Of a DNA stretch of 64,000 nucleotides, positions 4,031-58,828 are shown piece after piece. The stretch spans positions 2,953 to 66,952 of the forward strand of contig CACWOQ010000004.1 in assembly GCA_902762505.1 (NCBI GenBank), given 5' to 3'. Below the pieces are notes generated by a model that saw nothing but the letters and a program-made list of their open reading frames with translations, was not told where the DNA came from and ran no database searches. How positions within the stretch are numbered: the first letter of the stretch is position 1; each line of letters opens with the position of its first letter. The DNA comes from an uncultured Ruminococcus sp. GTDB taxonomy: Bacteria > Bacillota > Clostridia > Oscillospirales > CAG-272. A program made the translations under genes and the position numbers.

Positions 4031-4272
4031 CTTTTTTTCGTTTTTCTACGACAATTATATAACGGCGCACACCGATAGTCAACACGCCGCTTTTGCACAA
4101 TATGTAAACAAAAATCACTTTTTTAAGCCGCGTTCACGCGGCGCTTCAATATATACAGACGCTTTTTCAGCCGTCTTTGTTTCACGTTTCGACCATTGTT
4201 TACAAAAAATTTAAATATTAAAAATTATAAAGAATTCTTACGTCGTCTTAATAAATCTTAATATTTTCTCTA

Positions 4273-32834: not shown

Positions 32835-34238
32835 ATGAGCGAAAAAGAAAAATCCGCGGGCGAGCTGCTCAAAGAAAAGCTTGTCTACAAAAAGAAAAAC
32901 GTATTTGAAAAATGCCCCGAACAGACCGAGGCGGCGCTCGCCTACTGCGAGGATTACAAAAAATTCCTTGACAACGGCAAGACCGAGCGCGACGCCACCG
33001 CGTATTCGATCGGGCTTGCAAAGGCTCACGGCTTCCGTGAATACAAGCTCGGGATGAAGGTGAAAGCGGGAGACAAATTCTATTACGACAACCGCGGCAA
33101 GAGCCTTTACCTCTTCATCATCGGCTCCGAGGATATCGAAAACGGCATCGCGATCACGGCGGCGCACATCGACTCTCCGAGACTCGACATCAAAGCCAAC
33201 CCCGTATACGAGGCGGGCGGAATGGCGTTCATCAAGACGCATTACTACGGCGGTATCAAGAAATACCAGTGGACGGCGATACCGCTCGCAATACACGGCA
33301 TGGTAACTCTTTCCGACGGAAGCACGGTCGAAGTGAACATAGGCGAGGACGACAACGATCCGCTGTTCTACGTAAACGACATACTTCCCCATCTTGCGAA
33401 GGATCAGTATCAGAAGCACGTCGGCGACGCGATAGAGGGCGAACAGCTCAATCTGCTCTCCGGCAGCATACCGTTCGACAACGAGACGTCGGAGGCGATA
33501 AAACTCAACCTTCTGAAGCTCCTGAACGACAAATACGGAATGACAGAGTACGACTTCCAGGCGGCGGAGCTCTCCGCGGTACCTGCGTACAAGGCGCGCG
33601 ATATCGGTCTTGACAGGTCGCTTATCGCCGCGTACGGTCACGACGACAAGGTCTGCGCATATCCCGAGATCACGGCGATACTGAGCCTCGAGCATCCGAA
33701 GAAGACCGTAATGAGCATCCTCGCCGACAAGGAGGAGACGGGCTCAAACGGCAACACCGGCATGAAGACGAGCGCGTTCTGCGACATCATAGCCGATATC
33801 TCCGCATCGCTCGGGAAGAACGAGCGTATCGTCAGATCCAATTCAGTATGCCTGTCCGCGGACGTCGCGGCGGCGTACGATCCCAACTTCGCGGGAGCCT
33901 ACGAGATAAACAACTCCGCGCTGATCAACTCCGGTATAGCGCTCTGCAAATACACGGGCGCGCGCGGAAAGTCCGATACGAACGACGCCTCGGGCGAATA
34001 CGTCGGGAAGATCAGGAAGATATTCGACGACAACAACGTCGTATGGCAGTCCTGCGAGCTCGGCAAGGTCGATCAGGGCGGCGGCGGAACGGTCGCGAAG
34101 TATATTTCGGAAAAGAACATCGACACGGTCGACGTCGGCGTTCCCGTGATCTCCATGCACGCACCGTACGAGGTCGTATCAAAGTTCGACGTTTACAATA
34201 TGCACAAAGCTGTCGTCGCGTTCTACACGGCTGAATGA
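32835..34238 (+). CDS. M18-family aminopeptidase (aminopeptidase 1 / aspartyl aminopeptidase-like)
   Basis: ATG at 32835 preceded by AGAGGA. AAHIDSPRLDIK, THYYGGIKKYQW, YGHDDKVC, LADKEETGSNG and ISMHAPYE match the M18 metal-binding blocks. Confidence 0.8.
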   Translation: MSEKEKSAGELLKEKLVYKKKNVFEKCPEQTEAALAYCEDYKKFLDNGKTERDATAYSIGLAKAHGFREYKLGMKVKAGDKFYYDNRGKSLYLFIIGSEDIENGIAITAAHIDSPRLDIKANPVYEAGGMAFIKTHYYGGIKKYQWTAIPLAIHGMVTLSDGSTVEVNIGEDDNDPLFYVNDILPHLAKDQYQKHVGDAIEGEQLNLLSGSIPFDNETSEAIKLNLLKLLNDKYGMTEYDFQAAELSAVPAYKARDIGLDRSLIAAYGHDDKVCAYPEITAILSLEHPKKTVMSILADKEETGSNGNTGMKTSAFCDIIADISASLGKNERIVRSNSVCLSADVAAAYDPNFAGAYEINNSALINSGIALCKYTGARGKSDTNDASGEYVGKIRKIFDDNNVVWQSCELGKVDQGGGGTVAKYISEKNIDTVDVGVPVISMHAPYEVVSKFDVYNMHKAVVAFYTAE

Positions 34239-34243
34239 ATATG

Positions 34244-34281
34244 AAAACCGGGGCGGATCCGTCGATACCGCCCCGGTTTTT
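34244..34281 (+). terminator. Intrinsic terminator
   Basis: 13-bp stem AAAACCGGGGCGG / CCGCCCCGGTTTT with an 11-nt loop and a T tail. Confidence 0.8.
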
Positions 34282-34400
34282 CCGTCATCCGCCCTCCGAA
34301 ATTCGAATTTACAAAATGTTTACAAGAATTTCTGACACTTTTTCGTAAAAAACGTATATATATATGAAGAGCAAGCGCTTTTGATAAAAGAGGTATATTT

Positions 34401-34658
34401 ATGAAAAAAATCAGCAAAGCTACCGCTCTGAAGAAAACCGTCTCGCTGCTGCTTTCCTTTGTGATGATCCTCGTTATCATCCCCATCACCGCGGTGCACG
34501 CGGACGACGGTCCCGGGCTTGCGGTCACCGTTCTGGATGAAGATCAGCTTCACGATATAGCCGCAGAGAGCGCGGGAAAGCTGCCGGACGAGCTTTTGCA
34601 GCGCCTGTCCCTGCGCGATGCCGATATCCCGGAATCAATGAGTTCCACGGATATATGA
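34401..34658 (+). CDS. Signal-peptide fragment (85 aa), probably the N-terminus of the downstream gene cut off by an in-frame TGA
   Basis: MKKISKATALKKTVSLLLSFVMILVIIPITAVHA signal peptide. Same reading frame as 34737..36905, with no further stop between 34659 and 34736. Confidence 0.5.
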   Translation: MKKISKATALKKTVSLLLSFVMILVIIPITAVHADDGPGLAVTVLDEDQLHDIAAESAGKLPDELLQRLSLRDADIPESMSSTDI

Positions 34659-34736
34659 AACACGGAAGCGGTCGCCCGGCTCAAAGCCCGTGAAGACGGT
34701 CTTTCGTCGCTTGTATATGTAAACCGTGACGGAAAG

Positions 34737-36905
34737 GTGACGGAATACTTCTTTTCCGAGAACGTGAAGTACGAAAAAGAGGGAAACATATACGATAAAT
34801 CTAACCGCCTTACCGCGTCTGAAAAAACGGGCGGATATACAAACGAAGAGAATGACATAAACGTAACGCTGCCTTTTGAGCTGTCAAAAAGCAGCGGCAT
34901 AGAATTATCCTATAAGGATCACTTGATCGGATTCACACCTGTAAATAAAGACGACGGTAAAACGGCTGCAAAGCAGAGCACGGATGATACCGTAATATAT
35001 AAAAACGCTTTCGGCGAGGGTATATCGCTTGAATATACGGCGCAGTTCTCCGGCGTCAAGGAGAACGTGATAATAGCGCGTGATACGGGAGTATATGAAT
35101 ATGCGTTCGTGCTGAAAACACACGGCTTGTATCTCACAGCGGAAAACGGCGTTGTTCTTTTGCTTGATGAAAAGGGAGAAGAGATCGCGCAGATCGGCGG
35201 CGTGCTGATATATGACGAAAAAGGAAAGCCGGGCGAAGGCTCATTCAATGTAACGGAGCTTGTACCGGGTGAGGAATACGTATACACCGTTTCCGTGTCT
35301 GAGGCTTTTATGAAAAGCGATGATACGGCTTTTCCCGTTACCGTTGATCCGACAATTACATTTAATTCGTCATATCTGTATTATGATTCATCGCTGCAAG
35401 CGTTTTCGGGAGATTATACCCTGGACGCTGCGTGCCAATCTGTAAGCTTAGGACGCACCGGGACGTCAACTTATAAAAGAATGCTTATAAAATTCCCGAG
35501 TTTAACAACGGCGCTGAAAAAAATATCGTTCGATAATATCACAAGTATTAATCTGACGTTATACAGATCGAGTCCGTATGATTTTCAAACGATCAATTGT
35601 TACAGGATGACGAATTCCTGGTCAAGTACATCCGGATCAACAACTTCATCGGTATGGAACGGTTATGATCCCTCAAGCGTTGTAACGGGAAGCTTCTATA
35701 GTAATTGTAATTCCTGCTCGGTGAATATTAAAAGCATATGTGAGAAATGGATCGTAAATAATTACAGTGATTACGGTATAATGATCAAATTGCAGGATGA
35801 ATCGTTAAGCGGTCTGTCTTTGTATACAAAAGAAAATGCGAGCAGAAAACCCGTAGTCAGCATTTCATATACCATGCCTTCAAACATAGAAGACGTCGGA
35901 TTAAAAGAAAAACATCTATACAAGATCAAAAACACTTCTTCATTCAGTTATATCGGCTGTAACAGATCAAATTCAGGTACATATTCCGTATCTTTAAGCA
36001 CAACCGAACCGAGCGCATCATCGACCCTCGAAAACAGTGTGTATTTCGCTTTGTACAAAGACGGGAACAGTGGCTATTTCAAACTGACCCCGACAAATGC
36101 CAACTATAGGGGCAGCAAGGAATTATGGAATACCACTGAGATAAATTACTTGTATTATGACGGCAGCTCTGTAGGTATTTCAAGCAGTTATAACAACAGC
36201 AATAAATCAAGCTGGTACGTTGTAATGCATAACGACGGCAAATACTTTATATTGAACAGATACTATCCGAACATTGCCTTGAACTGGTTCTTAGGTAATC
36301 CTTCAGTTTCAACGGGCGAAGTTTCATTTAGCAGCTTGTCTCATAAATGGGAGTTCATCCCTGTCGGGCTTGATGTGCCGTTAATTCAACAAGAGCCAAA
36401 TTACTGCGGTCCTTGTTCAGTATTACAGGCAATAACATATAACGGAACTGAGAATCAAATTTGTAACAACCCGAACAATTACCAGAATCAATTGGCAATA
36501 AATATGAATACTGACTCAAGCGGGACAATCGTTGGCAAGGTTAAAGATGAGTTAAACAAGACGATTTATAACTTTCCTTCAACATTCAATAGTTACAGAG
36601 ACAACGTTATTAACAATACAAATAAGCTTAAAGAATATTGCCAGCATAGTTTAAACTTGCTATGTCCGGTTATCATTCAGGTTAAGCCATCAATTCTAGA
36701 TTATTATTCAAGTAATTATTCAAGCGATGGACACTATATTTGCTTGATTGGTATTGACGGAAATAACGCGATAGTAAGAGATTGTAATAATTCCGACTCG
36801 TATTTTGGTGAATTTGTTGTTCCTTTAAGTTCAGTATATGATGCCTCAACAAATTACTTTCCCCCCGATCATCCAACATATTCAAACTATATTATCTGCG
36901 CGTAA
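34737..36905 (+). CDS. Large multidomain protein: DNRLRE-like domain, beta-trefoil-like region and C-terminal papain-fold (C39-like) cysteine peptidase; lacks its own signal peptide
   Basis: The reading frame stays open upstream back to the TGA at 34656. The C-terminus has QQEPNYCGPCSVLQAI (Cys) and DGHYICLIGIDG (His), typical of the Peptidase_C39-like fold. WYVV and KWEFIP are QxW-like. Domain names are from motif memory. Confidence 0.5.
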   Translation: MTEYFFSENVKYEKEGNIYDKSNRLTASEKTGGYTNEENDINVTLPFELSKSSGIELSYKDHLIGFTPVNKDDGKTAAKQSTDDTVIYKNAFGEGISLEYTAQFSGVKENVIIARDTGVYEYAFVLKTHGLYLTAENGVVLLLDEKGEEIAQIGGVLIYDEKGKPGEGSFNVTELVPGEEYVYTVSVSEAFMKSDDTAFPVTVDPTITFNSSYLYYDSSLQAFSGDYTLDAACQSVSLGRTGTSTYKRMLIKFPSLTTALKKISFDNITSINLTLYRSSPYDFQTINCYRMTNSWSSTSGSTTSSVWNGYDPSSVVTGSFYSNCNSCSVNIKSICEKWIVNNYSDYGIMIKLQDESLSGLSLYTKENASRKPVVSISYTMPSNIEDVGLKEKHLYKIKNTSSFSYIGCNRSNSGTYSVSLSTTEPSASSTLENSVYFALYKDGNSGYFKLTPTNANYRGSKELWNTTEINYLYYDGSSVGISSSYNNSNKSSWYVVMHNDGKYFILNRYYPNIALNWFLGNPSVSTGEVSFSSLSHKWEFIPVGLDVPLIQQEPNYCGPCSVLQAITYNGTENQICNNPNNYQNQLAINMNTDSSGTIVGKVKDELNKTIYNFPSTFNSYRDNVINNTNKLKEYCQHSLNLLCPVIIQVKPSILDYYSSNYSSDGHYICLIGIDGNNAIVRDCNNSDSYFGEFVVPLSSVYDASTNYFPPDHPTYSNYIICA

Positions 36906-36930
36906 AAATCATCATAATGGAGGATGCAAA

Positions 36931-37605
36931 ATGAATTATGTAAAAAAAGCAGTAATATGCTTAGTTTCCATTACAATAGTATTGTCTGTCGCGTGTTGTG
37001 CATACGAAACGACGAATAAATATGACGGCAGCATAAAATGTGCGTTTCAACTATATCTGGTGATGTATCAGGATTGTGCAAATAAGCCATATGTTGAAAA
37101 TACTGACATAAGTATTGACGCTGATACGGAAGACTACGGAAAATGTAAAGCGTGGGAATTCACAGAGGATCTGTCAACTCCCGAAAAATTCAATGATTAT
37201 ACGTCGTCATTCTTTGACGATAACGTTTCCGCAAAGGCTTTTCATGAAACGATGTATCTTAAACTGATTGACGGAAAAATCGTATTGCTTGAGTTAGGAC
37301 CGCAATATATACCGTTTCAATATGACGAATCTGCGAAAACTTACATCATTGCAGAAACAGATAATACAATAACTTTGAAACGTGCAATCCTGCATATTAA
37401 CGGAAATGGCGACAGATCTCAAATTGATTACACCTTTATAATAAATAAAACAAATCAAAAAATCTGCGGAGGCACATTTGTTGAAAAAATGCTTGAAATC
37501 GATGCCGACACCCCTCAAACCTCCGACGCGCCAGTGATCGCTGTATGTGCTCTGACGCTTTCCGCCGCGGCGGCAGCGGTGCTGATAAAGAAGAAAAAAG
37601 TCTGA
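36931..37605 (+). CDS. Small surface (lipo)protein with a C-terminal TPQTSD sorting-signal-like tail
   Basis: ATG at 36931 with GGAGGA upstream. Signal/lipobox LSVACC. C-terminus DTPQTSDAPVIAVCALTLSAAAAAVLIKKKKV. Confidence 0.6.
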   Translation: MNYVKKAVICLVSITIVLSVACCAYETTNKYDGSIKCAFQLYLVMYQDCANKPYVENTDISIDADTEDYGKCKAWEFTEDLSTPEKFNDYTSSFFDDNVSAKAFHETMYLKLIDGKIVLLELGPQYIPFQYDESAKTYIIAETDNTITLKRAILHINGNGDRSQIDYTFIINKTNQKICGGTFVEKMLEIDADTPQTSDAPVIAVCALTLSAAAAAVLIKKKKV

Positions 37606-37752
37606 CCCGTGCCGTTCATCATATACGACAAGAACGCGGCGCACGTGATAGAGCCGGCGGACGATTACGGTCTGTCGAACGTAGCCGCCACCGTCACCGA
37701 GCTTCTCGGTCTTACGCCGGATCCCGTATGGCAAAGAAGTATGCTGAAATAA
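37606..37752 (+). pseudogene. 48-codon C-terminal relic of an alkaline-phosphatase-superfamily (metalloenzyme/phosphodiesterase-like) gene
   Basis: Directly in frame after the TGA of the preceding gene: PVPFIIYDKNAAHVIEPADDYGLSNVAATVTELLGLTPDPVWQRSMLK*. GC-rich like the host, and followed by its own terminator. No start codon and no N-terminal part. Confidence 0.5.
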
Positions 37753-37755
37753 GTC

Positions 37756-37780
37756 AACGGGGAACTCTGTTCCCCGTTTT
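37756..37780 (+). terminator. Intrinsic terminator (belongs to the relic gene)
   Basis: AACGGGGAAC-TCT-GTTCCCCGTT then TT. Confidence 0.65.
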
Positions 37781-37900
37781 CCGTCAAAAAAGCGAATTTA
37801 CATAAAATTAACAAGAAAAAACGACACTTTTCGGGTGTTTTTTACGTTTATATAAGTGAGCGAAAAAACCAAAATTATAATGCAGCAAGGAGAATGCAAA

Positions 37901-38713
37901 ATGAAAACCAAAAGAATTGTCTCGCTGGTCCTTTCAGTCATAACGCTTTTTTTGACATTACCGTCCTTTTCCGTTGCAACCGATGGATTGACCATATCTG
38001 AAGCGGCGAGGCTTGTTCGCGGATTTGAAGAAGCATATCTTATGACTGTCGAGTCAAACAAGGCGCCTCTTTTCTGGCAAAAGGATAAAAACATAAGTTT
38101 AAGCTACGAATACCGATTATCGAATGACAATCCGCAGTATGAGGCAGACAACGTTGAAAGCGGCGCCAAGTTATATATGTGCATAATGGAAACGTATGAC
38201 GAACTCCTGCAAAAACTGAAGCTTACGTTTACCGACGAGATGTCGAAAAAGATACTGAACGACAGTCGGTTCATCTATATCGACGGTAAAGCATATTATC
38301 CGAGAATCTTTTTCGACCCCGGTAATTTTTACGTTATTTCCGACGATGAGAATACCGAGGTTCCACTTGAAGAGCGTATTACGATTGTTGATAACGGAGA
38401 CGGTAGGTATACCGTTCATTACAACTATTGGGCGCCTGTCGAGGATGATAATGAAAACCATAATTCTGACAAATGGCTGTTATCCGATGCAAGAGACGGT
38501 CAAATAGACATCGTAAAAACAGACGACGGATTCAGAGTGTATAAGTATGACGGACTGTTATTCAAATCCGATCCTTTAGCGGACAGAGGCTTACGTAAAA
38601 CGCGTTTATTGAGCGAATCCCCTCAAACCTCTGACGCGCCGGTGATCGCGGTATGCGCGCTGGCGCTTTCCGCCGCAGCGGCGGCAGTCGTTCTTCGGAA
38701 AAAGCGCGGCTGA
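37901..38713 (+). CDS. Small secreted surface protein with a C-terminal SPQTSD sorting-signal-like tail
   Basis: ATG at 37901 with AAGGAGAA upstream. Signal peptide ...LPSFSVA. C-terminus ESPQTSDAPVIAVCALALSAAAAAVVLRKKRG. Confidence 0.6.
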   Translation: MKTKRIVSLVLSVITLFLTLPSFSVATDGLTISEAARLVRGFEEAYLMTVESNKAPLFWQKDKNISLSYEYRLSNDNPQYEADNVESGAKLYMCIMETYDELLQKLKLTFTDEMSKKILNDSRFIYIDGKAYYPRIFFDPGNFYVISDDENTEVPLEERITIVDNGDGRYTVHYNYWAPVEDDNENHNSDKWLLSDARDGQIDIVKTDDGFRVYKYDGLLFKSDPLADRGLRKTRLLSESPQTSDAPVIAVCALALSAAAAAVVLRKKRG

Positions 38714-49370: not shown

Positions 49371-49790
49371 ATGAAGAATACAAGTGAAATGCTGAGAGAC
49401 CTCAAGGGCTGTGAGATGTTTGAGAAATACTACGCCAGCAACAGACGGGATTTCAACAGAACCGATCTTTCGTCGTATCTGAACGATATCATCGCGCGCA
49501 AAGGACTTCGCAAAAGCGACGTCATACGCCGTTCGGAGCTCAGCGAGGTATACGGATATCAGATATTCGGAGGCTTGCGCCGCCCCGAGCGCGACAAGCT
49601 GCTCAGTCTTCTCATCGGTATGGAGCTCAAATTCGACGAGATCCAGCTGCTTTTCAAATCGTGCGGTTACGCTCCGCTTTACGCGAAGGACCCGCGTGAC
49701 GCGGCGATAATATTCGCCGTACTGAACAGGCTTTCCGTTGCGGAAACGAACGAGCTGCTTGAAAAATACGGATTTGCGTCAATAGGATGA
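49371..49790 (+). CDS. XRE-like HTH protein (paralog A), first gene of the HTH / zinc-ribbon / kinase operon
   Basis: GLRKSDVIRRSELSEVYGYQIFGGLRRPERDKLLSLLIGMEL is HTH_3-like. Clear paralog of 57111..57539 (shared Y.YQIF...(R/K)RP.RDK, GY(A/P)PLYAKD.RD). Confidence 0.65.
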   Translation: MKNTSEMLRDLKGCEMFEKYYASNRRDFNRTDLSSYLNDIIARKGLRKSDVIRRSELSEVYGYQIFGGLRRPERDKLLSLLIGMELKFDEIQLLFKSCGYAPLYAKDPRDAAIIFAVLNRLSVAETNELLEKYGFASIG

Positions 49791-50956
49791 AAAAATGTAA
49801 ATACTGCGGACGTGCAATAAGAGACGAGGCGAGATTCTGTCTTTACTGCATGAATTCGCTTGAAGAAAAAAAGGTAATAGAAATAAAAAACAGACGCCCC
49901 GTCAAAGCGATCATCGCCGCCGGGGCTTCCGTCGTTGTGACGGCGGGTGCCGTTGCCGTCGCGCTTTCCGCGGGCGGCGCGGTAAACGGCGCGGCGCATA
50001 TCAGGGAAGCGTCTTACGCGCCGCTGACCGACACCGCCGCCGTGACCCTTGCGCAATCCGGTCCGGAGGACGAAACGGAGCTTGTGATATTATCGCTTTT
50101 CGCCTCAGCCGATCAAAACGGCGATGAGACCGGCGCGCCGGAAGCGACCGCACCCGAAACGACGGAGTCCGAGACAACGGCGTCGGAAACGACAGTACCC
50201 GAAACGTCCGCACCTGAAACCGCCGCGCCGGAAACCACAACGTCAGAAACGACGGCGCCCGAAACGACGGGACCCGAAACATCCGCGCAGGAAACCGCCG
50301 CACCGGAAACCACAACGTCAGAAACGACGGTGCCCGAAACGTCCGCACCTGAAACCGCCGCACCGGAAGCAACGACGCCTGTGTCCGGGCAGTATTCCAT
50401 CCTGCCGGTCGGGCAGATCGGATATCTCACGCCCGGCGTCACCCTGTCGGATAAGCCGTTCGTTTCGTACGGCGACTGGACCGGTTACCGCGCCGAGCAT
50501 ACCGTAAAAGGTGAGGTCGTGCAGTACGGCGATCCGCTCATATACGTTTACGGAGACGGTGAAAAAGCGGTGTTCGAGGCGTCGCCCGAATCGCTTACCG
50601 GATCCCCCTCCGACGCTGACGCGGCGGACCTCGCTTATTCCATGCTGTGCCGCGTTACCGGGGCTTTGCCCGGCTCGCTGTGCGACGCGGAGGGCAACGA
50701 CGTAAACGCTCTTATGCGCAGCGTAACGAATTACGGCGGGGAAGGATACGACGGCATCCTTACGTCTCTTTGTCTGCCGGACGAACACAGGCGTGTATTA
50801 TATACGTACGGGATGATACCCGAATTCAGCCGCAGTGAATTCACGATCGGCGGCGAGCGGAGCATGCGCGTCACGTTTGAGGTACGCCGGTGGTCCGGTA
50901 TGACGTCGGGGATCTGCGTCGTTGACTGCGTGACGCTCATTGAATACGCCGACTGA
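49787..50956 (+). CDS. Zinc-ribbon / single-TM / T-E-P linker / extracellular-domain protein (module A)
   Basis: Start overlaps the HTH stop (ATGA). [23 protein letters not shown] is a CxxC...CxxC zinc ribbon. TM helix [28 protein letters not shown]-type repeats, then a C-terminal domain of about 190 aa and unknown fold. Confidence 0.65.
50183..50377 (+). repeat. In-frame tandem repeat (60/75/60 nt units) encoding SETT(V/A)[15 protein letters not shown]
   Basis: Units at 50183-50242, 50243-50317 (with a 15-nt insertion) and 50318-50377, read directly from the sequence. Confidence 0.8.
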
Positions 50957-50957
50957 A

Positions 50958-51662
50958 ATGAACAGACAGCAGTTTGAAACAGATATAAAAAAGATCTACT
51001 CGACGGTAGCGGTGATAACGGACAAACCCGGAAAAAAGGTGATCCGCTGCCGCCACACAGAGCTATTGCGCGACGTTGTGGTAAAGATCACGGAGAACGA
51101 TCTGCCCGCGTGCCGTTTTCTCTGCGGGATACGCCACGCGAATCTCCCGGAGATATACGACGTGTACGATCTTGACGACGGGTTTGCCGTCGTCGAGGAA
51201 TTCATAGCCGGAATGGATCTGCGCGGATCGCTCGGAGCCGGACTGTACGACTACTCCGGCGCGCGCAGCGTGATCCGCCAGGTCTGCCGCGCGCTCGCCG
51301 TTCTCCACGAAAACGGCTTCGTTCACAGGGACGTGAAGCCGGAAAACGTGATGATCGCGGACGACGGGACGGTCAAGCTTATAGACTTCGACGCCTGCCG
51401 CGCCTATTCAAGCGTAAAAAGCGCCGACACGCAGATCCTCGGTACGATCGGCTACGCCCCGCCCGAGCAGTTCGGCGTGGCGCAGAGCGACAGCCGTAGC
51501 GATATATACGCCGTAGGCGTTCTGCTGAACGTTATGCTTACGGGCGTCCATCCGTCGGAGAGAATAGCGCGCGGACGCGCCGGCAGGATAATCAGAAAAT
51601 GCACGCGGATCAACCCGGACGAGCGTTTCCGTGACGTGGAAAAGCTTATATCCGCGTTATAA
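50958..51662 (+). CDS. Stand-alone short Hanks-type Ser/Thr kinase domain protein (module A)
   Basis: [30 protein letters not shown]. No TM helix and no sensor domain. The ATG at 50958 lies 1 nt after the upstream stop (TGAaATG), mirroring module B. The listed TTG at 50940 is the alternative start. Confidence 0.7.
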
Positions 51663-51701
51663 AGAGCCGTTTTCAGGGATAGGCTATATAAAGAAGAAAC
51701 A

Positions 51702-51757
51702 AACCCACTCTGTCATCTTTCAATTATAGAAAGTGTCATAGTGGGTTATTTTCTTTC
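51702..51757 (+). terminator. Terminator-like compound hairpin after kinase A
   Basis: Outer stem AACCCACT/AGTGGGTT, inner stem CTTTC/GAAAG, followed by ATTTTCTTTC. Confidence 0.5.
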
Positions 51758-51801
51758 AGCTCGTCTTAACCCTTCCGATATAGGAAAGGTTTTTATTATT
51801 C

Positions 51802-52013
51802 AGCTAAATTGCTCGCTTACGCTCGCAGCTAAATTGAAGTCTTACGACTTCAGCTAAATTGAAAACCACAGGTTTTCAGCTAAATTAAATTCGCCTTTAA
51901 GCTCGCGTCAGCGAATTTAGCTTGCGACAGCAAATTTAGCTATGCGGAGCATAATTCAGCTCGCCGCTCGCGGCGAATTTAGCTGCGGTGTACTTCCTTA
52001 TGAAGTACACCGC
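51802..52013. repeat. Convergent 4+4 array of the 9-mer AGCTAAATT alternating with distinct short hairpins
   Basis: Plus-strand copies at 51802, 51827, 51852 and 51878. Inverted copies (AATTTAGCT; one is AATTCAGCT) at 51914, 51933, 51953 and 51976. Spacers are GAAGTC-TTAC-GACTTC, GAAAACC-ACA-GGTTTTC, TGC-GACA-GCA, ATGC-GGA-GCAT, CGCCG-CTCG-CGGCG, plus a terminal 12-bp stem at 51985-52013. Confidence 0.85.
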
Positions 52014-52198
52014 TACCGCGGCTTTTTCTTTGCGTCCGGCTTTTCCACGCTGACATTCGTGCCGGACATTTCGCGGTATGATTCCGCTTCACCGTCCGTC
52101 AGCGGCACGCTCGCTGTGAGTCCCGTGCACTCGTTCGCCATGACGGCGCCGGCAAACAGCTCGTCCTTTGTGAGAGGCACTTTTTTCTTTTTCTTCAT
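52013..52198 (-). CDS. Small hypothetical protein (61 aa, Lys-rich at both ends)
   Basis: GGAGG lies 8 nt upstream of the ATG at 52198. MKKKKKVPLTKDELFAGAVMANECTGLTASVPLTDGEAESYREMSGTNVSVEKPDAKKKPR. The stop abuts the 12-bp hairpin of the array. I recognise no family. Confidence 0.4.
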   Translation of the reverse strand: MKKKKKVPLTKDELFAGAVMANECTGLTASVPLTDGEAESYREMSGTNVSVEKPDAKKKPR

Positions 52199-52256
52199 TT
52201 TCATCACCTCCGCCGCATTATTGCCGTCATGTTTTAAAAAAATTCAATGATTGATA

Positions 52257-52285
52257 TTGCAAATATGCACAATAGACTGTATAAT
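52257..52285 (+). promoter_or_regulatory. Candidate sigma-A promoter of the aminotransferase gene
   Basis: TTGCAA, 17 nt, TATAAT. Confidence 0.55.
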
Positions 52286-52361
52286 ATAATGAAAACGTAC
52301 GTTTTTTTGCAGGGCGGTTTGAGTTTTACTGCAAAAATACGGTCCTTAAAAGGTGGCTTAT

Positions 52362-53645
52362 ATGAAAAAATACACGGAAATGGATCGCGCGGAGCTTTTA
52401 TCCGAGCGCCAAAGGATACAGAACGAATACGACGATATCAAGGCGCAGGGCTATAAGCTCGATATGTCGCGCGGAAAGCCGAGCAGCGAGCAGCTGCGGC
52501 TCACGGAATCCATGCTCGGGATCCTCAATAAAGGATGCGACTGCAAAACGGACGAGGGCATAGACTGCCGCAACTACGGTCAGCTTTTCGGCTTGCCGGA
52601 GGCGAGACAGCTTTTCTCCTCCCTGCTTGACATCCCTGCCGACAACATAATCCTCGGCGGCAACTCGTCGCTCAATATGATGTACGATACCGTTGTCCGC
52701 GCGATGCTATACGGAGTGCCCGGCGGCGACCGTCCCTGGTGCAAGCTCGACCGCGTTAAATTCCTCTGCCCCTCCCCCGGTTACGACAGGCATTTCAGCA
52801 TCTGTGAATCGCTCGGGATAGAGATGATACCGGTAGACATGACGCCGACCGGTCCCGATATGGACGCGGTCGAATCTCTCGTCGCCTCGGACGAGAGCAT
52901 AAAAGGCATCTGGTGCGTGCCGAAATACTCCAACCCTCAGGGCATAACGTATTCCGACGAGACGGTGAGACGCTTTGCTCGCCTTGAATGCAAGGCGAAG
53001 GATTTCAGGATATTCTGGGACAACGCGTACGCCGTGCACGATCTTGACGAGGAAGGTGACAGTCTTCTGAACATCTTCCGGCTCATGCAGGGGACGGACA
53101 AGGAGGATATGCTTTATTTCTTCTTCTCAACGTCGAAGATAAGCTTCCCCGGCTCGGGCGTCGCAATGCTCGCTCTGAGCGACGGGAACCTCGCCGCAGC
53201 GAAAAAGATCATCGAGGTCCAGACGATAGGACCGGATAAAATAAACCAGCTGAGGCACGTAAAATACTTCACGAATGCCGAAGGCATAGTAGACCACATG
53301 AGACTTCACGGAATGGTGCTGAAGCCCAGATTCGACGTGGTGCTGGGTACGCTGCGCAAGGAGCTTGCGCCCGCGGGCATCGCCTCCTGGACCGAGCCGA
53401 AGGGCGGCTACTTCATCAGCCTCGACGTGGCGGACGGTACCGCCGCGGAAACGTACAGACTTGCGGCGGAAGCCGGCGTGAAAATAACGAAAGCCGGCGC
53501 CACCTTCCCGTACGGCAAGGATCCGAGGGACAGAAATCTGAGACTTGCGCCGTCGTATCCGCCTCTGCGCGAGCTGATCGAGGCGATACACGTCATCTGT
53601 GTCTGCGCAAAGCTCGCATATCTTGACAAAGCGCTTAACGTTTGA
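52362..53645 (+). CDS. PLP-dependent aminotransferase, class I/II fold (aspartate/aromatic aminotransferase-like)
   Basis: ATG at 52362 with AAAGGTGG upstream. LDMSRGKPSSEQL, CPSPGYDRHF, CVPKYSNPQG, FWDNAYAVH and FSTSKISFPGSG (Lys for PLP) are characteristic of this aminotransferase subgroup. Confidence 0.75.
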   Translation: MKKYTEMDRAELLSERQRIQNEYDDIKAQGYKLDMSRGKPSSEQLRLTESMLGILNKGCDCKTDEGIDCRNYGQLFGLPEARQLFSSLLDIPADNIILGGNSSLNMMYDTVVRAMLYGVPGGDRPWCKLDRVKFLCPSPGYDRHFSICESLGIEMIPVDMTPTGPDMDAVESLVASDESIKGIWCVPKYSNPQGITYSDETVRRFARLECKAKDFRIFWDNAYAVHDLDEEGDSLLNIFRLMQGTDKEDMLYFFFSTSKISFPGSGVAMLALSDGNLAAAKKIIEVQTIGPDKINQLRHVKYFTNAEGIVDHMRLHGMVLKPRFDVVLGTLRKELAPAGIASWTEPKGGYFISLDVADGTAAETYRLAAEAGVKITKAGATFPYGKDPRDRNLRLAPSYPPLRELIEAIHVICVCAKLAYLDKALNV

Positions 53646-53778
53646 CAACAAAAACATAAAAACCGGCGACAGCCGCGATCCGATACGATCCGCTGTTCAC
53701 CGGTTTTTTTCTTTGTATAGTCGACGTGCAAAAGCTCGTGTTCGATGGTTCGGATCTTTTGAGAACAGCAGATCCTTA

Positions 53779-54522
53779 TCATTTGCCGGGAAGGATCCTG
53801 ATCCCGGCGCCGAGCGCCGAGGCGAGCGCTTCGGCTGATCTGTACCGCAGATCCGGATTGATCTGCGTGCATTTGAGTATGATCCTGCCGGCGCGGCCCT
53901 TAGCGATCCGCTCCGTCGGGTGGGATCCCGTGAGCAGGACGTTGTAAAGAACGCCGAGCGCGTAGATATCGACTCTGCAGTCGCTCTGGCTTATTCCGAA
54001 CTGCTCGGGCGAGGCGTACCCCGGAGTTCCGAGCACTCTCGTGTCGCCGGTCTTGCTGTCGTCGTACAGGCGCGCCGCGTCGAAATCTATGAGCACGACT
54101 CTTTCGCCCGATATCATTACGTTTTCCGGCTTTATATCTCTGTGGACGAAGCCGTTTGAATGAAGCAGCGAAAGGATGCCGCAAAGACTGATAACGATAT
54201 CCGCGGCTTGCTTTTTCGACAGCTCCTCCGTCATGATCAGATCGGACAGAAGCCTTCCTTTTATGAATTCTTCTATGAGGACCGCTCCGTCCGGGCATTC
54301 GTATACCTCGTAAACGCGCGGAAGTCCGTCGCATTCCACCCCGCGCAGAAAGCCGTATACGGGCAGATATTCCGGCAGGCTTTTTATAAGGAAATCGCGT
54401 CCCGTGCCCGCGTGAACGGCTTTGAATATCATTTTGCCGTCTGACGCGGACATCTCGCCGCCGGTTTTGAAAAGCCCGCCCAGCCCGTCAAGCACTTCCT
54501 GTCTTGTTTTTTTCGTTCTCAT
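53779..54522 (-). CDS. Stand-alone short Hanks-type Ser/Thr kinase domain protein (module B)
   Basis: HRDIKPENVMI, DFDAARLY, GTPGYASPEQF. 247 aa with no TM helix. The ATG lies 1 nt after the upstream stop (TGAtATG). Confidence 0.7.
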   Translation of the reverse strand: MRTKKTRQEVLDGLGGLFKTGGEMSASDGKMIFKAVHAGTGRDFLIKSLPEYLPVYGFLRGVECDGLPRVYEVYECPDGAVLIEEFIKGRLLSDLIMTEELSKKQAADIVISLCGILSLLHSNGFVHRDIKPENVMISGERVVLIDFDAARLYDDSKTGDTRVLGTPGYASPEQFGISQSDCRVDIYALGVLYNVLLTGSHPTERIAKGRAGRIILKCTQINPDLRYRSAEALASALGAGIRILPGK

Positions 54523-54523
54523 A

Positions 54524-55798
54524 TCAGTTTACGTATTCCGCGTATGTGAATGTACCGCTCTCGAAAAACCACGGTATAGATTGTATTATCCTGTCGTCGG
54601 TTGGCAATCCGATAACGTTTTTATATTCCACCGTGACTCTGACGGTATGCTCGGCGCCCTTTAAGAGAAATTCACGGTATTCGTATTCTATCGAACCGAC
54701 GTTTCCGAGTCCGCCATACTCCCTGAAAACGTCGTATAACGGATAATCCGGATTATCCTCGTCAATACGTCCGTCAAATCCGTATTCGATCCCGATACCG
54801 CGCCAGCCATCCGGTCTCTTGTGTTCTTCCGCTTCCGATACGGCGAGACGGAGATCCGGATCGTCGGCACCGACGTTCAGAGAATAGCCTAACAACGACA
54901 ATCCGTCAAATTCGTGATCGGAATATGCGGCGACGGCGCCGCCGCCGTTTCTGAAGTAAACGAGCCTCCTGTGCTCAAGATCTTCAATTTGCTTTGATAC
55001 ACCGTAATCCGGATCCATCGTCCCGTATAAAAAAGTCGTCCAATCGTTATAACAATAGGCTTCGAGCCACAGGTATTCCGATACATACGGATCGTCCGGA
55101 GGTCCTCCGGCAAATTCGTCTTTGTCAACGATCCTGACCGGACCTCGGGTCTTTACCTCTACGTCGGGTATTCCGGTTTCCGGAACTGTTGTTTCGGGAG
55201 CCGTTGTTTCCGGCGGCGTTTCGGGGGTTGCCGTTTCGGCGGTCGTCGTTTCCGGGGGCGTTGTTTCGGGAGTCGTCGTTTCCGGCGGAGTTGTTTCCGG
55301 CGGAGTTGTCACCGGTGTCTGCGTTTCCTTTATCTCCGTCACGGGCGCTATGGTCACGGGCGCCGCTGTTTCGGGTTCCGCCGTTTCACCGTCTGTTTCG
55401 GGAGGCGCCGTTTCAGTCTCCGAAGCCGCTGTCACAGGCTCCGGCTCCGTGCCGGGTGAGGTTTGACCGTCTGCCGTCTCTGTATTATCCGGGTCGGTTC
55501 CGGTTATCGCCGGCGCAGCGGCGGTCACTTCCGTGCCGTCCGACGATCCGCCGTTCACGCCGGATTCGGCGTTGGTATACACACCGGGTCTGAAGCTGCC
55601 GAACGCACGGTGCACGGAAGTCACGGCGAGTACCGAGAAAACGGTAACGGCGGCGATAACGGCGAACAGCACCGGATACAGCCTTGATTTTCTGTCCGTG
55701 TCGATCACGACGCGTGCGGCTGAGGAGGTGCGCTCCGCGCAGAAAACGCAGAACGACGATCCGTTGTCGATCTGCCTGCCGCAGTTCGGGCATTTCAT
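54524..55798 (-). CDS. Zinc-ribbon / single-TM / T-E-P linker / extracellular-domain protein (module B)
   Basis: Preferred start is ATG 55798 (MKCPNCGRQIDNGSSFCVFC), 11 nt after AAAGGAGG. TM helix YPVLFAVIAAVTVFSVLAVTSV. PETT repeats. The C-terminal domain of about 210 aa is unrelated to that of module A. Confidence 0.65.
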   Translation of the reverse strand: MKCPNCGRQIDNGSSFCVFCAERTSSAARVVIDTDRKSRLYPVLFAVIAAVTVFSVLAVTSVHRAFGSFRPGVYTNAESGVNGGSSDGTEVTAAAPAITGTDPDNTETADGQTSPGTEPEPVTAASETETAPPETDGETAEPETAAPVTIAPVTEIKETQTPVTTPPETTPPETTTPETTPPETTTAETATPETPPETTAPETTVPETGIPDVEVKTRGPVRIVDKDEFAGGPPDDPYVSEYLWLEAYCYNDWTTFLYGTMDPDYGVSKQIEDLEHRRLVYFRNGGGAVAAYSDHEFDGLSLLGYSLNVGADDPDLRLAVSEAEEHKRPDGWRGIGIEYGFDGRIDEDNPDYPLYDVFREYGGLGNVGSIEYEYREFLLKGAEHTVRVTVEYKNVIGLPTDDRIIQSIPWFFESGTFTYAEYVN

Positions 55799-55922
55799 AT
55801 CCGCGCTCACCTCCTTTTAACGTATTTTACCACCGATGCGCGCAAAAATCAATATTTGCGGGAAAATTGAAAAGCCGTTTTTTAAAATTTATGATTTTTT
55901 GTTTTTTTCGGCGTAAAATATC

Positions 55923-55951
55923 TTGACAAACGTCTGAAAACTGTATATAAT
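55923..55951 (+). promoter_or_regulatory. Consensus sigma-A promoter
   Basis: TTGACA, 17 nt, TATAAT, about 40 nt upstream of 55994. Confidence 0.7.
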
Positions 55952-55993: not shown

Positions 55994-56920
55994 ATGAAAA
56001 AAGTACTTTCAATAGTCCTTTGCACGCTTCTCTGCGCGGCTCTCGCTCTGACTTCGTTCGCAGCCAGCCACGCCGAATCCGCTAAAGCCGGCGAAGAGCT
56101 CTTCGCGGATGACTTTTCCGGTGACTCCCTCGACGCTGAAAAGTGGGATGCATGGGCCGGCTACGCAGTAACCGACGGCAAGCTCCATCTCGGCCACGGT
56201 GCAAGCTGGATCGATTCCTCGCCCGGCGCCAACACCAAGGTCACGTTCAAAAACTATATCGCAGAATTCGACTTCGCGGGCGACGGCAGAGACTGCTACT
56301 ACGGCTTCGGTCTCCGCACTCTCACCAGCCATACCGCCGCTTCTTTGTTCAACGGCGGCAGATTCGGTGTTCCGTCCGCGGCTGAAACGTCCACCGGTAT
56401 CGCGATAGACATCTTCGGCGCCGGCAACTCCACCCTCAACGGCGCAGCTCTCGGTATCACGTTCTGCAACGGCGGTGAAAACGGCTCCGCTCCGGCCCTC
56501 TCGATCCCGTACGCAAACGGCTTCGACGGCAAGGCCGAGACCCACTTCAAGGTAGTTGACTCCGGCGAAAAGATCACGATCTACGCCGCGAACAACGAGA
56601 TCGCGACCATCGAGCTTTCCGGTCTGTCCGACGGCAGCTACACCAAAGCCGCCGTATTCGGACCCGACGGTGCTTCCCTCGGTTCCTTCGACGTAACCGT
56701 CGCTGAAGAAGGCGCTCTCGCTTTCTATCAGAGAAACGACCACATCACCGTTGACAACCTGAAGGTCAACGCCATCGCGGAAGAAGCCGGCGAACAGCCC
56801 GGCGGCGATACTCCCGCGGATCCCGTAAATCCGGGTACTGCCGACGCTTCCGTCATAGCTGTCGCGGCTGTCGCCTGCGTAGCTCTTGCCGGTGTCGTTG
56901 TTGCGAAAAAGGTAAGATAA
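55994..56920 (+). CDS. Secreted DUF1080/LamG-like (concanavalin-type lectin fold) protein with a C-terminal NPGTAD sorting-signal-like tail
   Basis: AAAGGAGAA RBS and a signal peptide ...TSFAAS. FADDFSGDSLDAEKWDAWAGYAVTDGKLHL is a DUF1080-like opening. C-terminus VNPGTADASVIAVAAVACVALAGVVVAKKVR. Confidence 0.6.
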   Translation: MKKVLSIVLCTLLCAALALTSFAASHAESAKAGEELFADDFSGDSLDAEKWDAWAGYAVTDGKLHLGHGASWIDSSPGANTKVTFKNYIAEFDFAGDGRDCYYGFGLRTLTSHTAASLFNGGRFGVPSAAETSTGIAIDIFGAGNSTLNGAALGITFCNGGENGSAPALSIPYANGFDGKAETHFKVVDSGEKITIYAANNEIATIELSGLSDGSYTKAAVFGPDGASLGSFDVTVAEEGALAFYQRNDHITVDNLKVNAIAEEAGEQPGGDTPADPVNPGTADASVIAVAAVACVALAGVVVAKKVR

Positions 56921-56933
56921 CCTGAAACAGATC

Positions 56934-56964
56934 AAGGCGGATGACTTCTCATCCGCCTTTTTCC
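56934..56964 (+). terminator. Intrinsic terminator
   Basis: AAGGCGGATGA-CTTC-TCATCCGCCTT then TTTTCC. Confidence 0.8.
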
Positions 56965-57110
56965 TTTGATCCGCTTGCCGATTTTTTCCGCTTTTTTCAA
57001 AAAAATACGAAAAAAACCGCGATAATTATGCTCGCAGGTTAACACAAACGCCGAAAAATATGTATAATAGGAGGCAGAGCACAGACGTGAGTGAAAGGAA
57101 ATTCCGGGCT

Positions 57111-57539
57111 ATGGATAAAACAACGAAAGAGCTGCTTGAAACGATGAAAACAAGCAAGAACTACTACGAATATCTTGTCGAGAATGAAACCTCTCTTTAT
57201 TCCGGCAAAATGAAGCCCGGACGCGCTCTGAAATCGCTCATAGCCGAATCCGGTATGAAAAAAGCGGACATAATCGCAAAATCCACAATAGAACAGCACT
57301 ACGCCTATCAGATCTTCGAGGACAAAAAAAGACCCTCGCGCGACAAGATGATAATGCTCTGTTTCGGGCTTCAGTTATCTCTTGACGATGCGAACGATCT
57401 TTTCAAGGTCACCGGATATCCTCCGCTTTACGCGAAGGATATGCGCGACAACATAATCATATACTGTCTTGAAAAAAAGCAGAGAGTGATAGACGTGAAC
57501 CTGCTTCTTGCCGAACGCGGGTTCCAGACGCTCGATTAA
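57111..57539 (+). CDS. XRE-like HTH protein (paralog B)
   Basis: ATG at 57111 (GAAAGGAA upstream). GMKKADIIAKSTIEQHYAYQIFEDKKRPSRDKMIMLCFGLQL...GYPPLYAKDMRD is collinear with 49371..49790. Confidence 0.65.
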   Translation: MDKTTKELLETMKTSKNYYEYLVENETSLYSGKMKPGRALKSLIAESGMKKADIIAKSTIEQHYAYQIFEDKKRPSRDKMIMLCFGLQLSLDDANDLFKVTGYPPLYAKDMRDNIIIYCLEKKQRVIDVNLLLAERGFQTLD

Positions 57540-58828
57540 AGCCGTCTTGACATCTCCTCCGCGATCTTTCCCGTGTTTACGTACACGATGACCGCAAGCG
57601 CGACGCAAGCCGCGATCCCGGCGAATCTCACGACGCCCGCGTAAAGCATTCCGAAGCCGGAGGCGGCGGATACGGCGCAGGCGGCGATTCCGGCGATTCC
57701 GATCAGCTTGCATCTGTTATACAAACCTCTCAGATAGCCCTCCTCGTCAAACGTGGGGGCTTTTGTATATTTGACGACGGCTTCGCAGAGATATCCGTAA
57801 AGCAGATAGAACAGGTACGCGAACAAAACGAAGCAAAGGGCGCGAAGCGAAGCGACCGTCAAAAACGGCGCGGACGGTGAAAACGATCCGTTGTAGTGTT
57901 TTTGCGCCGTCACAAGCTCAAGCGAAAACGAGCCGGCGCAGAGCGCCGCAGTCACAGCCGAGACGACGGCGGCTTTTTTTGTTTTCGCAACGGCTCTCAA
58001 TCTGTAAAACGCGGCGAGCATCAGCGCTGCCGCGATGAAATCCGGTATCACGTCGACTCCGCGGATGAAAACGCCGGATAACGCGGCGCAGGCTGCCGTC
58101 AGAAGCGACGCCGACGCCTTTACCGACATAAAAGCCTGTTTCTCTTCATCCGAGCCGATCTCCGCGTCGTATCGCGCGGCGATCGCCGCGACAGACACTT
58201 TATCGGAGCGGAGCCTGCCGAAATACCTCACGGCGAGGATGAAGAATACGACGCCGATCATAAGCGATATCACAAAGCAGGCGACGGTTATCACGGATCT
58301 GCTGTCGTAGAGCGTGGCCCTCTGCAGATCGTCCACCGTGACGGATTCCTTATACGCGTTGTTCGTCAGCACCGTCAGCTCCGGCGCTGCGGCGAGCACG
58401 GCGCGTCCGATCACGAACACGCGCGAGGTGAGAAGCAGATCGTCGTGATATTTGTCGGGCACGTCGCAGCCGGCGCGTGTGCTGAGATAATAGCTCCCCT
58501 CGCGCAGCTCGGAAAAAGCCGGAAGAAGGAACACCGTCTCCGCTATCGCGAACGCGAACACGACGAGCATTTCCGTCATCTCGTCGCGCAGGCCCGCGAC
58601 GGCGGGCGTGAGTATCAGCCTTGCGAGGCTGAGATATAAAAGATACCTGAAATTGCGCGCGGCGGAATGCAAATCGCCGTTCAGCTGAGACGTCTTATAT
58701 AATCCGGCGGCGATCAGCGCGTACCCGATAACGTCCGGCATGAAATCGTACAGACCGAACGCGGGGACGAACAGAAACGCGATGCCGGCTATGATCAAAC
58801 CGTAACCCATAAGCAACGCTCCTTTCAC
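57536..58828 (-). CDS. Polytopic membrane protein of unknown function (about 10 predicted TM helices)
   Basis: 430 aa, hydrophobic throughout, no recognisable motif. Its stop overlaps the stop of the convergent HTH gene by 4 nt. Confidence 0.5.
   Translation of the reverse strand: MKGALLMGYGLIIAGIAFLFVPAFGLYDFMPDVIGYALIAAGLYKTSQLNGDLHSAARNFRYLLYLSLARLILTPAVAGLRDEMTEMLVVFAFAIAETVFLLPAFSELREGSYYLSTRAGCDVPDKYHDDLLLTSRVFVIGRAVLAAAPELTVLTNNAYKESVTVDDLQRATLYDSRSVITVACFVISLMIGVVFFILAVRYFGRLRSDKVSVAAIAARYDAEIGSDEEKQAFMSVKASASLLTAACAALSGVFIRGVDVIPDFIAAALMLAAFYRLRAVAKTKKAAVVSAVTAALCAGSFSLELVTAQKHYNGSFSPSAPFLTVASLRALCFVLFAYLFYLLYGYLCEAVVKYTKAPTFDEEGYLRGLYNRCKLIGIAGIAACAVSAASGFGMLYAGVVRFAGIAACVALAVIVYVNTGKIAEEMSRRL

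Follow-up and report, generated by a model that had tools for sequence, protein, structure and literature searches.

The region between positions 53,779 and 55,798 of a 64,000-nucleotide (nt) stretch of contig CACWOQ010000004.1, from an uncultured Ruminococcus sp. (the whole stretch is referred to here as the window), carries two adjacent minus-strand genes. The first, zrB, encodes a membrane protein with an N-terminal zinc ribbon and a large ectodomain, and the second, kinB, a small Ser/Thr kinase. A comparable pair, zrA and kinA, lies nearby on the plus strand. The locus therefore raises the question of whether such a pairing is a functional unit and, if so, what kind of signalling it might carry out. 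A first-pass annotation, made from the sequence alone, had taken the zrB–kinB pair (module B) and the zrA–kinA pair (in module A) for members of a diversifying receptor family.

The interpretation favoured here, to which we give a probability somewhat above one half (about 0.55), is that the genes of module B are one instance of a transmembrane signalling cassette with three components, which consists of a split receptor Ser/Thr kinase and a dedicated regulator. In the mechanism proposed, ZrB would serve as sensor or co-receptor, its ectodomain, held out through the wall on a stalk, sensing a cue. The ribbon and the juxtamembrane tail would provide a docking site that recruits and activates KinB, which is probably made in a fixed ratio with ZrB by translational coupling. 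KinB would in turn phosphorylate an XRE-fold protein and so change transcription, the proposed output being the product of hthA in module A and probably that of hthC in module B. Functionally, such a cassette would amount to a receptor kinase of the PknB/PrkC type that is divided between two polypeptides and coupled one-to-one to a regulator of its own. It is widespread in uncultured gut Clostridia, with the closest named relatives in Oscillospiraceae, Acutalibacteraceae and Ruminococcus.

Conserved pairing of the ribbon and kinase genes

Exactly two open reading frames (ORFs) in the whole window combine a CxxC...CxxC motif with a following transmembrane (TM) helix, and kinases of the kinA/kinB family likewise number only two. 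Each ribbon gene stands directly upstream of such a kinase on the same strand, so that both pairs are adjacent and co-oriented. In five other loci (L001, L084, L085, L087 and L088) the B pair is found again in the same order with a junction of 0–1 nt, and in L086 the ribbon gene is cut by the contig end, with 31 nt between the called genes. The A unit, which includes the third gene discussed below, is kept as a triad in L001, L086 and L087.

Because zinc-ribbon membrane proteins are common in these genomes, ribbons linked to a module were compared with unlinked ones, counting only distinct sequences drawn from 80 loci seeded on the third gene. A CxxCM ending is found in 22 of 22 module-adjacent ribbons as against 1 of 15 non-adjacent ribbons (Fisher p = 2.5e-9), the remaining 14 of which end in a generic CxxCG. 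The module-adjacent ribbons are a subfamily of their own, with motifs specific to each clade: orthologues from module A carry FCLYCM and those from module B FC[IV][FH]CA, kept in all of them, so that the B-clade ribbon (CxFCA ending) is a derived variant of the family CxxCM. Ribbons also track their kinases, a covariation that the first-pass annotation had named among the checks on its proposal: across 27 dereplicated triads the pairwise distances of the two proteins correlate at r = 0.82 (Mantel p <= 2e-4). These data support the view that the ribbon protein and the kinase form a conserved functional unit.

KinA and KinB are 48% identical over 233 amino acids (aa; E 3e-76); their cores are paralogous, as had been recognised, and so are the two modules. 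Every sequence statement made earlier about the two-gene unit of module B (ribbon, TM helix, Pro/Glu/Thr-rich stalk, ectodomain, TGA-T-ATG junction and 247-aa kinase) was checked and stands. The junction geometry calls for a more qualified account. A 1-nt spacer does separate the two genes in both modules (...GCC GAC TGA A ATG AAC... in A and ...GTA AAC TGA T ATG AGA... in B), but it amounts to tight coupling rather than to a signature, since the spacing is 1 or 0 nt in B orthologues, while in A orthologues and other relatives the ribbon and kinase genes overlap by 4 nt. With junctions of 0, 1 or -4 nt among orthologues, the spacer was rejected as a diagnostic feature. Because no strong Shine-Dalgarno sequence precedes either kinA or kinB, translational coupling of the kinases to the ribbon genes seems likely.

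An XRE-fold protein as the third component

A third partner gene, encoding an XRE-fold helix-turn-helix (HTH) protein of ~140 aa, had been overlooked. In module A it is hthA; a paralogue near module B, hthC, encodes a protein with 36% identity to HthA. The AF2 model of HthA (pLDDT 93.3) shows a Cro/C1-type HTH core flanked on either side by two additional helices, for which Foldseek returned C.Esp1396I, DdrO and ClgR at TM ~0.73 and a root-mean-square deviation (rmsd) of 2.1–2.5 Å. The five-helix Cro/C1 fold, with TP901-1 CI also among the matches, is recovered at probability 1.0, TMt 0.7–0.78 and rmsd 2.0–2.5 Å over 65–70 residues. Sequence profiles capture this family poorly: HthA has no Pfam match even at E 10 and no NCBIfam match, HTH_3, HTH_31 and HTH_26 all stay below threshold (HthC reaches 15.2 bits with HTH_26, against a cut-off of 22), and only 2 of 99 HTH homologues have a precomputed PF13560 match. 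A search for an operator-like palindrome shared by the regions upstream of hthA, zrB and hthC gave nothing convincing.

The linkage of the HTH gene to the other two was followed from both sides. A metagenome scan seeded on the HTH protein gave the 80 loci mentioned above, 36 of them with adequate flanks; a kinase lies within 3 kb of the HTH gene in 28 of these 36 and a ribbon gene with TM helix within 1.5 kb in 23. A scan of a genome collection seeded on the kinase with the pattern HRD[IV]KPEN was swamped by generic kinases and contributed family members only in L004–L011. The HTH gene adjoins the kinase in all the first kinase-seeded loci with upstream sequence (L001A, L003–L008, L010 and L011). 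Among the kinase-seeded loci the order is HTH, ribbon, kinase in L003, L004, L005, L011, L170 and L171, the HTH gene is divergent from the kinase in L006, L007, L008 and L010, and L172 has ribbon and kinase without an HTH gene. With H, Z and K standing for the HTH, ribbon and kinase genes, at least three orders occur (H>Z>K, <K H> <Z and H>K>Z), and since the neighbourhood survives such rearrangement, the three genes are best regarded as a functional unit. In the 27 triads the distances of kinase and HTH protein correlate at r = 0.89 and those of HTH protein and ribbon at r = 0.78, alongside the 0.82 given above for kinase and ribbon (each p <= 2e-4). The modules are thus inherited as units, which falls short of proof of physical co-evolution. 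One locus of 7.7 kb, L169, has the HTH gene and the kinase gene twice each, a single CxxCM ribbon gene and an ectodomain-only ORF; it gives the impression of several clustered modules, of which some have decayed.

The hthC gene lies 1.3 kb from zrB on the opposite strand. Its ORF opens at 57060, and a promoter-like site at 57039–57068 together with the family alignment places the probable start at M18 (57111, MDKTT). An orthologue at 67% identity occupies the same relative position in L001, and hthC is tentatively taken as the partner of module B. The stop of hthC overlaps tail-to-tail by 4 nt with the end of a gene for a 430-aa polytopic membrane protein (57536–58828, minus strand) that has no family match; this convergent pair is kept in L001 at 55% identity. 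Likewise, in human-gut loci of the <K H> <Z order, the ribbon gene abuts the HTH gene tail-to-tail.

A minimal kinase with a non-canonical nucleotide pocket

Both kinases are clear members of the Pkinase family PF00069 (97.5 bits for KinB and 111.7 bits for KinA, cut-off 31.7), the match spanning only profile positions ~50–204. KinB retains the β3 Lys47, HRDIKPEN, DFD and GTPGYASPE. Every one of 122 aligned members (122/122) has HRDxKPEN, the Asp of the DFG motif (D146), DT and GT.GY in the activation loop and an APE-like SPE/PPE. Thr161 and Thr166 of the activation loop are invariant and, together with the near-invariant Thr4 of the HTH family, are the foremost candidate phosphorylation sites. 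At the third position of DFG, 90 members have N, 30 have D and 1 has G; at β3, R occurs in 97, ahead of K in 14 and H in 11, and the two window copies have Lys. The best PDB sequence match is PknB (E 5e-22), which aligns only over residues 75–202; the αG region is deleted, ~10 residues lying between HP(S/T) and the αH-like segment versus 34 in PknB (a deletion of ~24 residues). The NCBIfam model of PASTA receptor kinases, NF033483, gives 109 bits against a cut-off of 450, over the kinase core only.

A search with KinB gives 2364 clusters at E <= 1e-10, which makes this a large family; the best 120 of these are 217–269 aa long, mostly 233–234 aa. Sources name its members only as 'serine/threonine protein kinase [Clostridia bacterium]'. 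Judging from the conserved catalytic motifs, we read the kinase as a probably active, although non-canonical, minimal enzyme. It may be speculated that a conserved His or Asn followed by Arg or Lys in β2 (RLRH[RK]) replaces the β3 Lys; WNK kinases, in which this Lys has been relocated, offer a parallel.

Ectodomain divergence and fused relatives

The earlier statement that the ectodomains of modules A and B cannot be aligned holds for pairwise comparison (BLASTP E 0.063). A comparison of profiles nevertheless joins the B-type (4 sequences) to the A-type (3 sequences) with an hhalign probability of 97.5% and E 7.9e-12; both types have NGWxG, KRPxGWRG..ENGI and, at the C-terminus, (A/I)EY(V/A)D, and transitive BLAST links the two types, for example L001A to L001B at 1e-7. 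On this evidence the two ectodomains are recognisable as the same domain in the form of fast-diverging homologues. Identity to the L001 orthologues is 28–32% for the ectodomains, 63–64% for the kinases and 57–67% for the HTH proteins; the ectodomain evolves far faster than its kinase and HTH partners.

It had been suggested that conserved signalling halves carry swapped sensor halves. Within the window this does not apply, as A and B are homologues there, but across the genomes of the family it does: the linked ribbon proteins carry LRR_5/BspA, PepSY, Cys-rich repeats, DUF6273 and several domains without a Pfam match. The description as a diversifying receptor family accordingly suits the family as a whole and not the relation of A to B. 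LRR_5/BspA and PepSY are extracellular-type domains, as expected of sensors. Ectodomain B itself is confined to a small clade, with three true relatives found by HMMER among 1.84 billion representatives; a word-indexed homologue search returned only a fragment of zrB itself. Beyond that fragment, the HMMER scan contributed two genuine relatives, and two other candidates, P0224 and P0225, were discarded as spurious repeat proteins. The AF2 model of ectodomain B, built on a four-row alignment, has no PDB fold match in Foldseek, avidins and other matches (TM <= 0.2) having been discarded.

Relatives in which the parts are joined shed light on the role of the ribbon protein. On a 3.9-Mb contig (L173), the gene of an HTH homologue overlaps the start of a gene for a 550-aa protein composed of a kinase, one TM helix and an LRR_4 ectodomain. 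The kinase part belongs to the same family as KinA, to which it is 35% identical (E 2e-35); it shows DFD and PEQFG..QTDxRTDxYAxGV, and its αG region is short. Other relatives are kinases of 374–420 aa with a C-terminal polytopic membrane anchor, encoded beside an HTH gene. The kinase–HTH pair therefore occurs both with sensor and anchor on the kinase itself and with these provided by a separate protein, and because relatives fuse the kinase with an anchor or sensor beside an HTH gene, the ribbon protein is read as a detached receptor half.

Counter-evidence and alternative explanations

A number of points weigh against the split receptor kinase proposed here. Contact between ribbon and kinase, kinase activity, phosphorylation and DNA binding of the HTH protein and the ligand are all things that we infer, and the low-confidence model of ectodomain B (pLDDT 59.8) gives no support to ligand binding. 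The GxGxxG loop is absent from the kinase, the family consensus being LS.KN[GD]CKVLRLRH and the KinB sequence KTGGEMSASDGKMIFKAVH; the short αC segment has no conserved acidic residue and hence no conserved αC Glu; and with Arg or His at β3 in 108 of 122 members, some or all of these proteins might be weak kinases or pseudokinases. As to the third component, 8 of the 36 well-flanked HTH loci have no kinase within 3 kb, and co-inheritance alone could produce the distance correlations. The operon of module B contains no HTH gene; hthC is served by a separate promoter-like site, a monocistronic 308-aa gene and that gene's terminator intervene between it and zrB, and the link of hthC to module B has been observed only in the window and L001.

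Among the alternatives, membrane sequestration of the regulator is unlikely. Until something engages the ectodomain, the cytoplasmic ribbon would keep the HTH protein at the membrane, in the manner of an anti-sigma factor or a LytTR inhibitor, and the kinase would only tune the release, for instance with the ribbon tail or the HTH protein as its substrate. The overlap of the HTH and ribbon genes in module A (ATGA), their end-to-end abutment in the 17 loci of the <K H> <Z order (coordinates 5414/5415) and the correlation of their distances (r = 0.78) all fit such a scheme, and pairs of a regulator and a membrane inhibitor are an established design (PMC6193735). It is harder to reconcile with the kinase being near the HTH gene more often than the ribbon gene is (28 versus 23 of 36), with the fused kinase–TM–LRR relative, which needs no ribbon, and with module B and L172, which keep ribbon and kinase without an adjacent HTH gene.

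More improbable, though still a contender, is a pseudokinase or adaptor, in which KinB would transfer no phosphate and would couple the ribbon tail to the HTH protein as a nucleotide-binding or scaffold subunit. The lack of the Gly-rich loop and of a conserved αC Glu, Arg or His instead of Lys at β3 (108 of 122 members), DFN or DFD in place of DFG and the missing αG all speak for it. Full invariance (122/122) of HRDxKPEN, the DFG Asp, the activation-loop Thr and SPE/PPE is, however, hard to explain without catalysis, and the β3 Lys is kept in both window copies.

A toxin-antitoxin or phage defence system, which would pair an XRE antitoxin or repressor with a kinase as effector, as do HipBA, Stk2 or PD-T4-6, is very improbable. 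It would account for the XRE-type protein adjoining a kinase, for the presence of several copies in some genomes and for the matches of the kinase to the PADLOC kinase models PD-T4-6, mad6 and Stk2. These matches, as well as those to PHROG, are limited to the generic kinase core; in PADLOC the HTH proteins and zrB have no match, and zrA has one stray match of 13.9 bits (E 0.007) to a PD-T4-6 model; PHROG likewise gave no meaningful match for these accessory proteins. The kinase is of the Hanks type, no HipA family appearing among the profile matches, and the neighbours of the locus, among them housekeeping genes (an Asp aminotransferase gene, infC and rpmI), are kept across related assemblies. 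HTH relatives number 2 in 2.9 million viral contigs versus 193 in metagenomes, and such systems give no role to a large extracellular domain. Finally, the possibility that abundant zinc-ribbon membrane genes merely happen to lie beside a kinase, conceivable where such genes are as common as in L003 (three in 12 kb), is refuted, in agreement with the first-pass annotation, which had also argued against chance, by the adjacency of both window pairs (2/2), by the conservation of the pair across assemblies and gene orders and by the CxxCM bias.

Relation to known systems

The split receptor kinase is closest in design to PknB, PrkC, StkP and Stk1, with which it shares a Hanks-type core and an extracellular sensor across a single TM helix; the fused relative L173 has exactly the kinase–TM–ectodomain layout of PknB and PrkC. 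Unlike PASTA-type receptor kinases of Gram-positives, the cassette has its sensor with TM helix and its kinase as separate proteins, uses a zinc ribbon as the cytoplasmic part of the sensor, lacks a PASTA domain, Gly-rich loop and αG, and has a linked dedicated HTH gene.

A Hanks kinase encoded beside its substrate transcription factor is familiar from PknH–EmbR of Mycobacterium tuberculosis. The same bacterium has PknK–VirS, in which the transcription factor beside the kinase is its specific substrate (PMC4601284). The likeness of the cassette to these pairs is conditional on its HTH protein being phosphorylated. It also differs from them, their regulators being an FHA-containing SARP and an AraC protein, their kinases full-size and a separate ribbon-anchored sensor lacking. 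Paralogous modules are known from the SigI/RsgI systems of cellulolytic Clostridia, where a bitopic protein joins a conserved cytoplasmic part to a variable extracellular sensor. The cassette resembles these in having several paralogous modules per genome and a variable extracellular sensing domain, but there a sigma factor is held by an anti-sigma domain and no kinase takes part; Pfam scans of the module proteins found neither a sigma factor nor an RsgI_N domain.

In cytokine receptor–JAK pairs and in plant receptor-like proteins with a partner kinase, a non-catalytic ligand-binding TM chain recruits a separate kinase; the likeness is architectural only, the receptor chains not being homologous. 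HipBA and HipBST share with the cassette an XRE-type HTH gene adjoining a Ser/Thr kinase gene and differ in the HipA fold, which is unrelated to Hanks kinases, in having no membrane partner and in their toxin-antitoxin biology. LytTR regulatory systems (PMC6193735) likewise cotranscribe a small regulator with a controlling membrane protein, but with a LytTR instead of an XRE fold and with neither a kinase nor a large ectodomain.

None of these nearest known systems brings together all three elements of the cassette: a detached sensor with a ribbon tail, a minimal kinase and an XRE-fold partner of its own. A full-text literature search found no description of the cassette, most subscription journals being outside its coverage, so that this is absence of evidence only; the cassette is apparently undescribed. 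In the usual description of bacterial Hanks kinases, a genome has few of them, and each is joined to its sensor and acts on many targets (PMC4601284). The cassette family contrasts with this on all three counts: sensor and kinase are separate genes, the kinase has ~233 aa and an unusual nucleotide pocket, and it is accompanied by its own small HTH protein.

A broader proposal, possible rather than probable, is that these cassettes form a class of Ser/Thr phospho-signalling systems, one-to-one in their wiring, that has so far gone unrecognised and that would be the counterpart in Clostridia of two-component systems. A ribbon-tailed co-receptor with a hypervariable or exchangeable ectodomain would then switch on a minimal kinase in trans, and the kinase, with its non-canonical ATP site (β3 Arg or His, no Gly-loop, DFN or DFD), would phosphorylate a dedicated XRE-fold regulator. 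The loci of the kinase family come from gut and rumen-type metagenomes and its named members are Clostridia; signalling in these abundant, mostly uncultured bacteria is almost unstudied. If the split receptor kinase model is correct, it would provide a simple, modular three-gene system in which a Ser/Thr kinase is switched across the membrane by a partner chain, and the rapidly evolving surface domains may mark what these bacteria sense in the gut. On the broader proposal, paralogue expansion, with at least two modules per genome, would let gut Oscillospirales read many surface cues of host, diet or neighbouring cells.

Gene structures and organisation of the locus

The features of the two modules are collected in Table 1. 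The start of zrB is the ATG at 55798 (MKCPNCGRQIDNGSSFCVFC...), with AAGGAGG 11 nt upstream, and its stop is the TGA at 54524–54526. Residues 2–23 match DUF7575 (E 9.5e-7) and Zn_Ribbon_1 (E 5.9e-4) in Pfam; both CxxC knuckles are present, and the DUF7575 score of 28.5 bits is exactly at the cut-off. The ribbon of zrA scores 21.4 bits with Zn_Ribbon_1, below the cut-off of 25. The cytoplasmic tail of ZrB has only ~35 residues, mostly zinc ribbon. Its stalk is partly built of 15-nt tandem repeats (TRF, 55191–55387) and varies in length among the orthologues, which occur in L001, L084, L085, L086, L087 and L088 and total 404–455 aa. The hairpin downstream of kinB was not flagged by the terminator scan.

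Table 1. Features of modules A and B, with positions in the window
Feature	Position	Strand	Description and basis
zrB	54524..55798	-	424-aa bitopic membrane protein; ORF and translation, Pfam, orthologues
zrB zinc ribbon	55733..55798	-	Cytoplasmic, N-terminal; residues 1-22, CPNC...CVFC
zrB TM helix	55613..55681	-	Single helix, LYPVLFAVIAAVTVFSVLAVTSV; residues 40-62; read from sequence, passed hydrophobic-window test
zrB stalk	55175..55546	-	Pro/Glu/Thr-rich (PETT), ~120 residues; repeats by TRF
zrB ectodomain B	54527..55174	-	C-terminal, ~216 aa; lineage-restricted α/β domain, fold unassigned
zrB-kinB junction	54520..54526	-	TGA-T-ATG; read from sequence
kinB	53779..54522	-	247-aa soluble minimal Hanks-type Ser/Thr kinase; Pkinase E 1.1e-27
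Promoter-like site upstream of zrB	55824..55852	-	TTGATT-17-(TG)TAAAAT; consensus scan only
Hairpin downstream of kinB	53655..53706	-	Imperfect, GC-rich, with T run; possible operon terminator; by eye
hthC	57111..57539	+	XRE-fold small protein, hthA paralogue; candidate third component of module B
hthA	49371..49790	+	139-aa XRE-fold protein, first gene of module A; ATGA overlap with zrA
zrA	49787..50956	+	389 aa: zinc ribbon (FCLYCM), TM helix, PETT stalk, ectodomain A
kinA	50958..51662	+	234-aa minimal kinase, kinB paralogue; Pkinase E 5.2e-32

The order of genes across 49371–55798 of the window is not that of L001, L086 and L087. In those loci module B, a PDZ protein gene, module A and the Asp aminotransferase gene follow one another in one direction throughout, while in the window the block of module A and aminotransferase is inverted relative to module B and the PDZ gene is absent. 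The gap of 690 bp between kinA and the aminotransferase gene contains tandem repeats at 51801–51863 (25 nt x 2.5) and 51900–51946 (19 nt x 2.4). An Rfam scan of 48.5–58 kb gave no match.

Neighbouring secreted proteins

The 308-aa gene between zrB and hthC (55994–56920, plus strand) encodes a secreted, anchored protein without a Pfam match and is served by a promoter with perfect sigma-70 consensus (55923–55951) and a terminator at 56934–56959. It is divergent from zrB–kinB in the window, L001 and L087 and, at 86–88% identity against 64% for the kinase, far better conserved than its neighbours, which makes it a possible regulated target.

Its C-terminal tail is common to four secreted proteins, encoded at 36838–37605, 37856–38713 and 55994–56920 of the window (all on the plus strand) and at 4255–5493 of L172 (minus strand); two of the four lie beside ribbon–kinase pairs. 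The tail consists of P-x-T-[SA]-D-[AV], a hydrophobic stretch of ~20 residues with Cys and then KK(A/V)(K/R), as in PQTSDAPVIAVCAL...KKKKV and PGTADASVIAVAAVACVALAGVVVAKKVR, and is possibly a C-terminal anchoring signal, either a sortase-type variant or one of another kind. Two of these proteins are encoded within 34001–38000, where G+C is 0.39–0.45 versus ~0.56 elsewhere, and this stretch could be an island.

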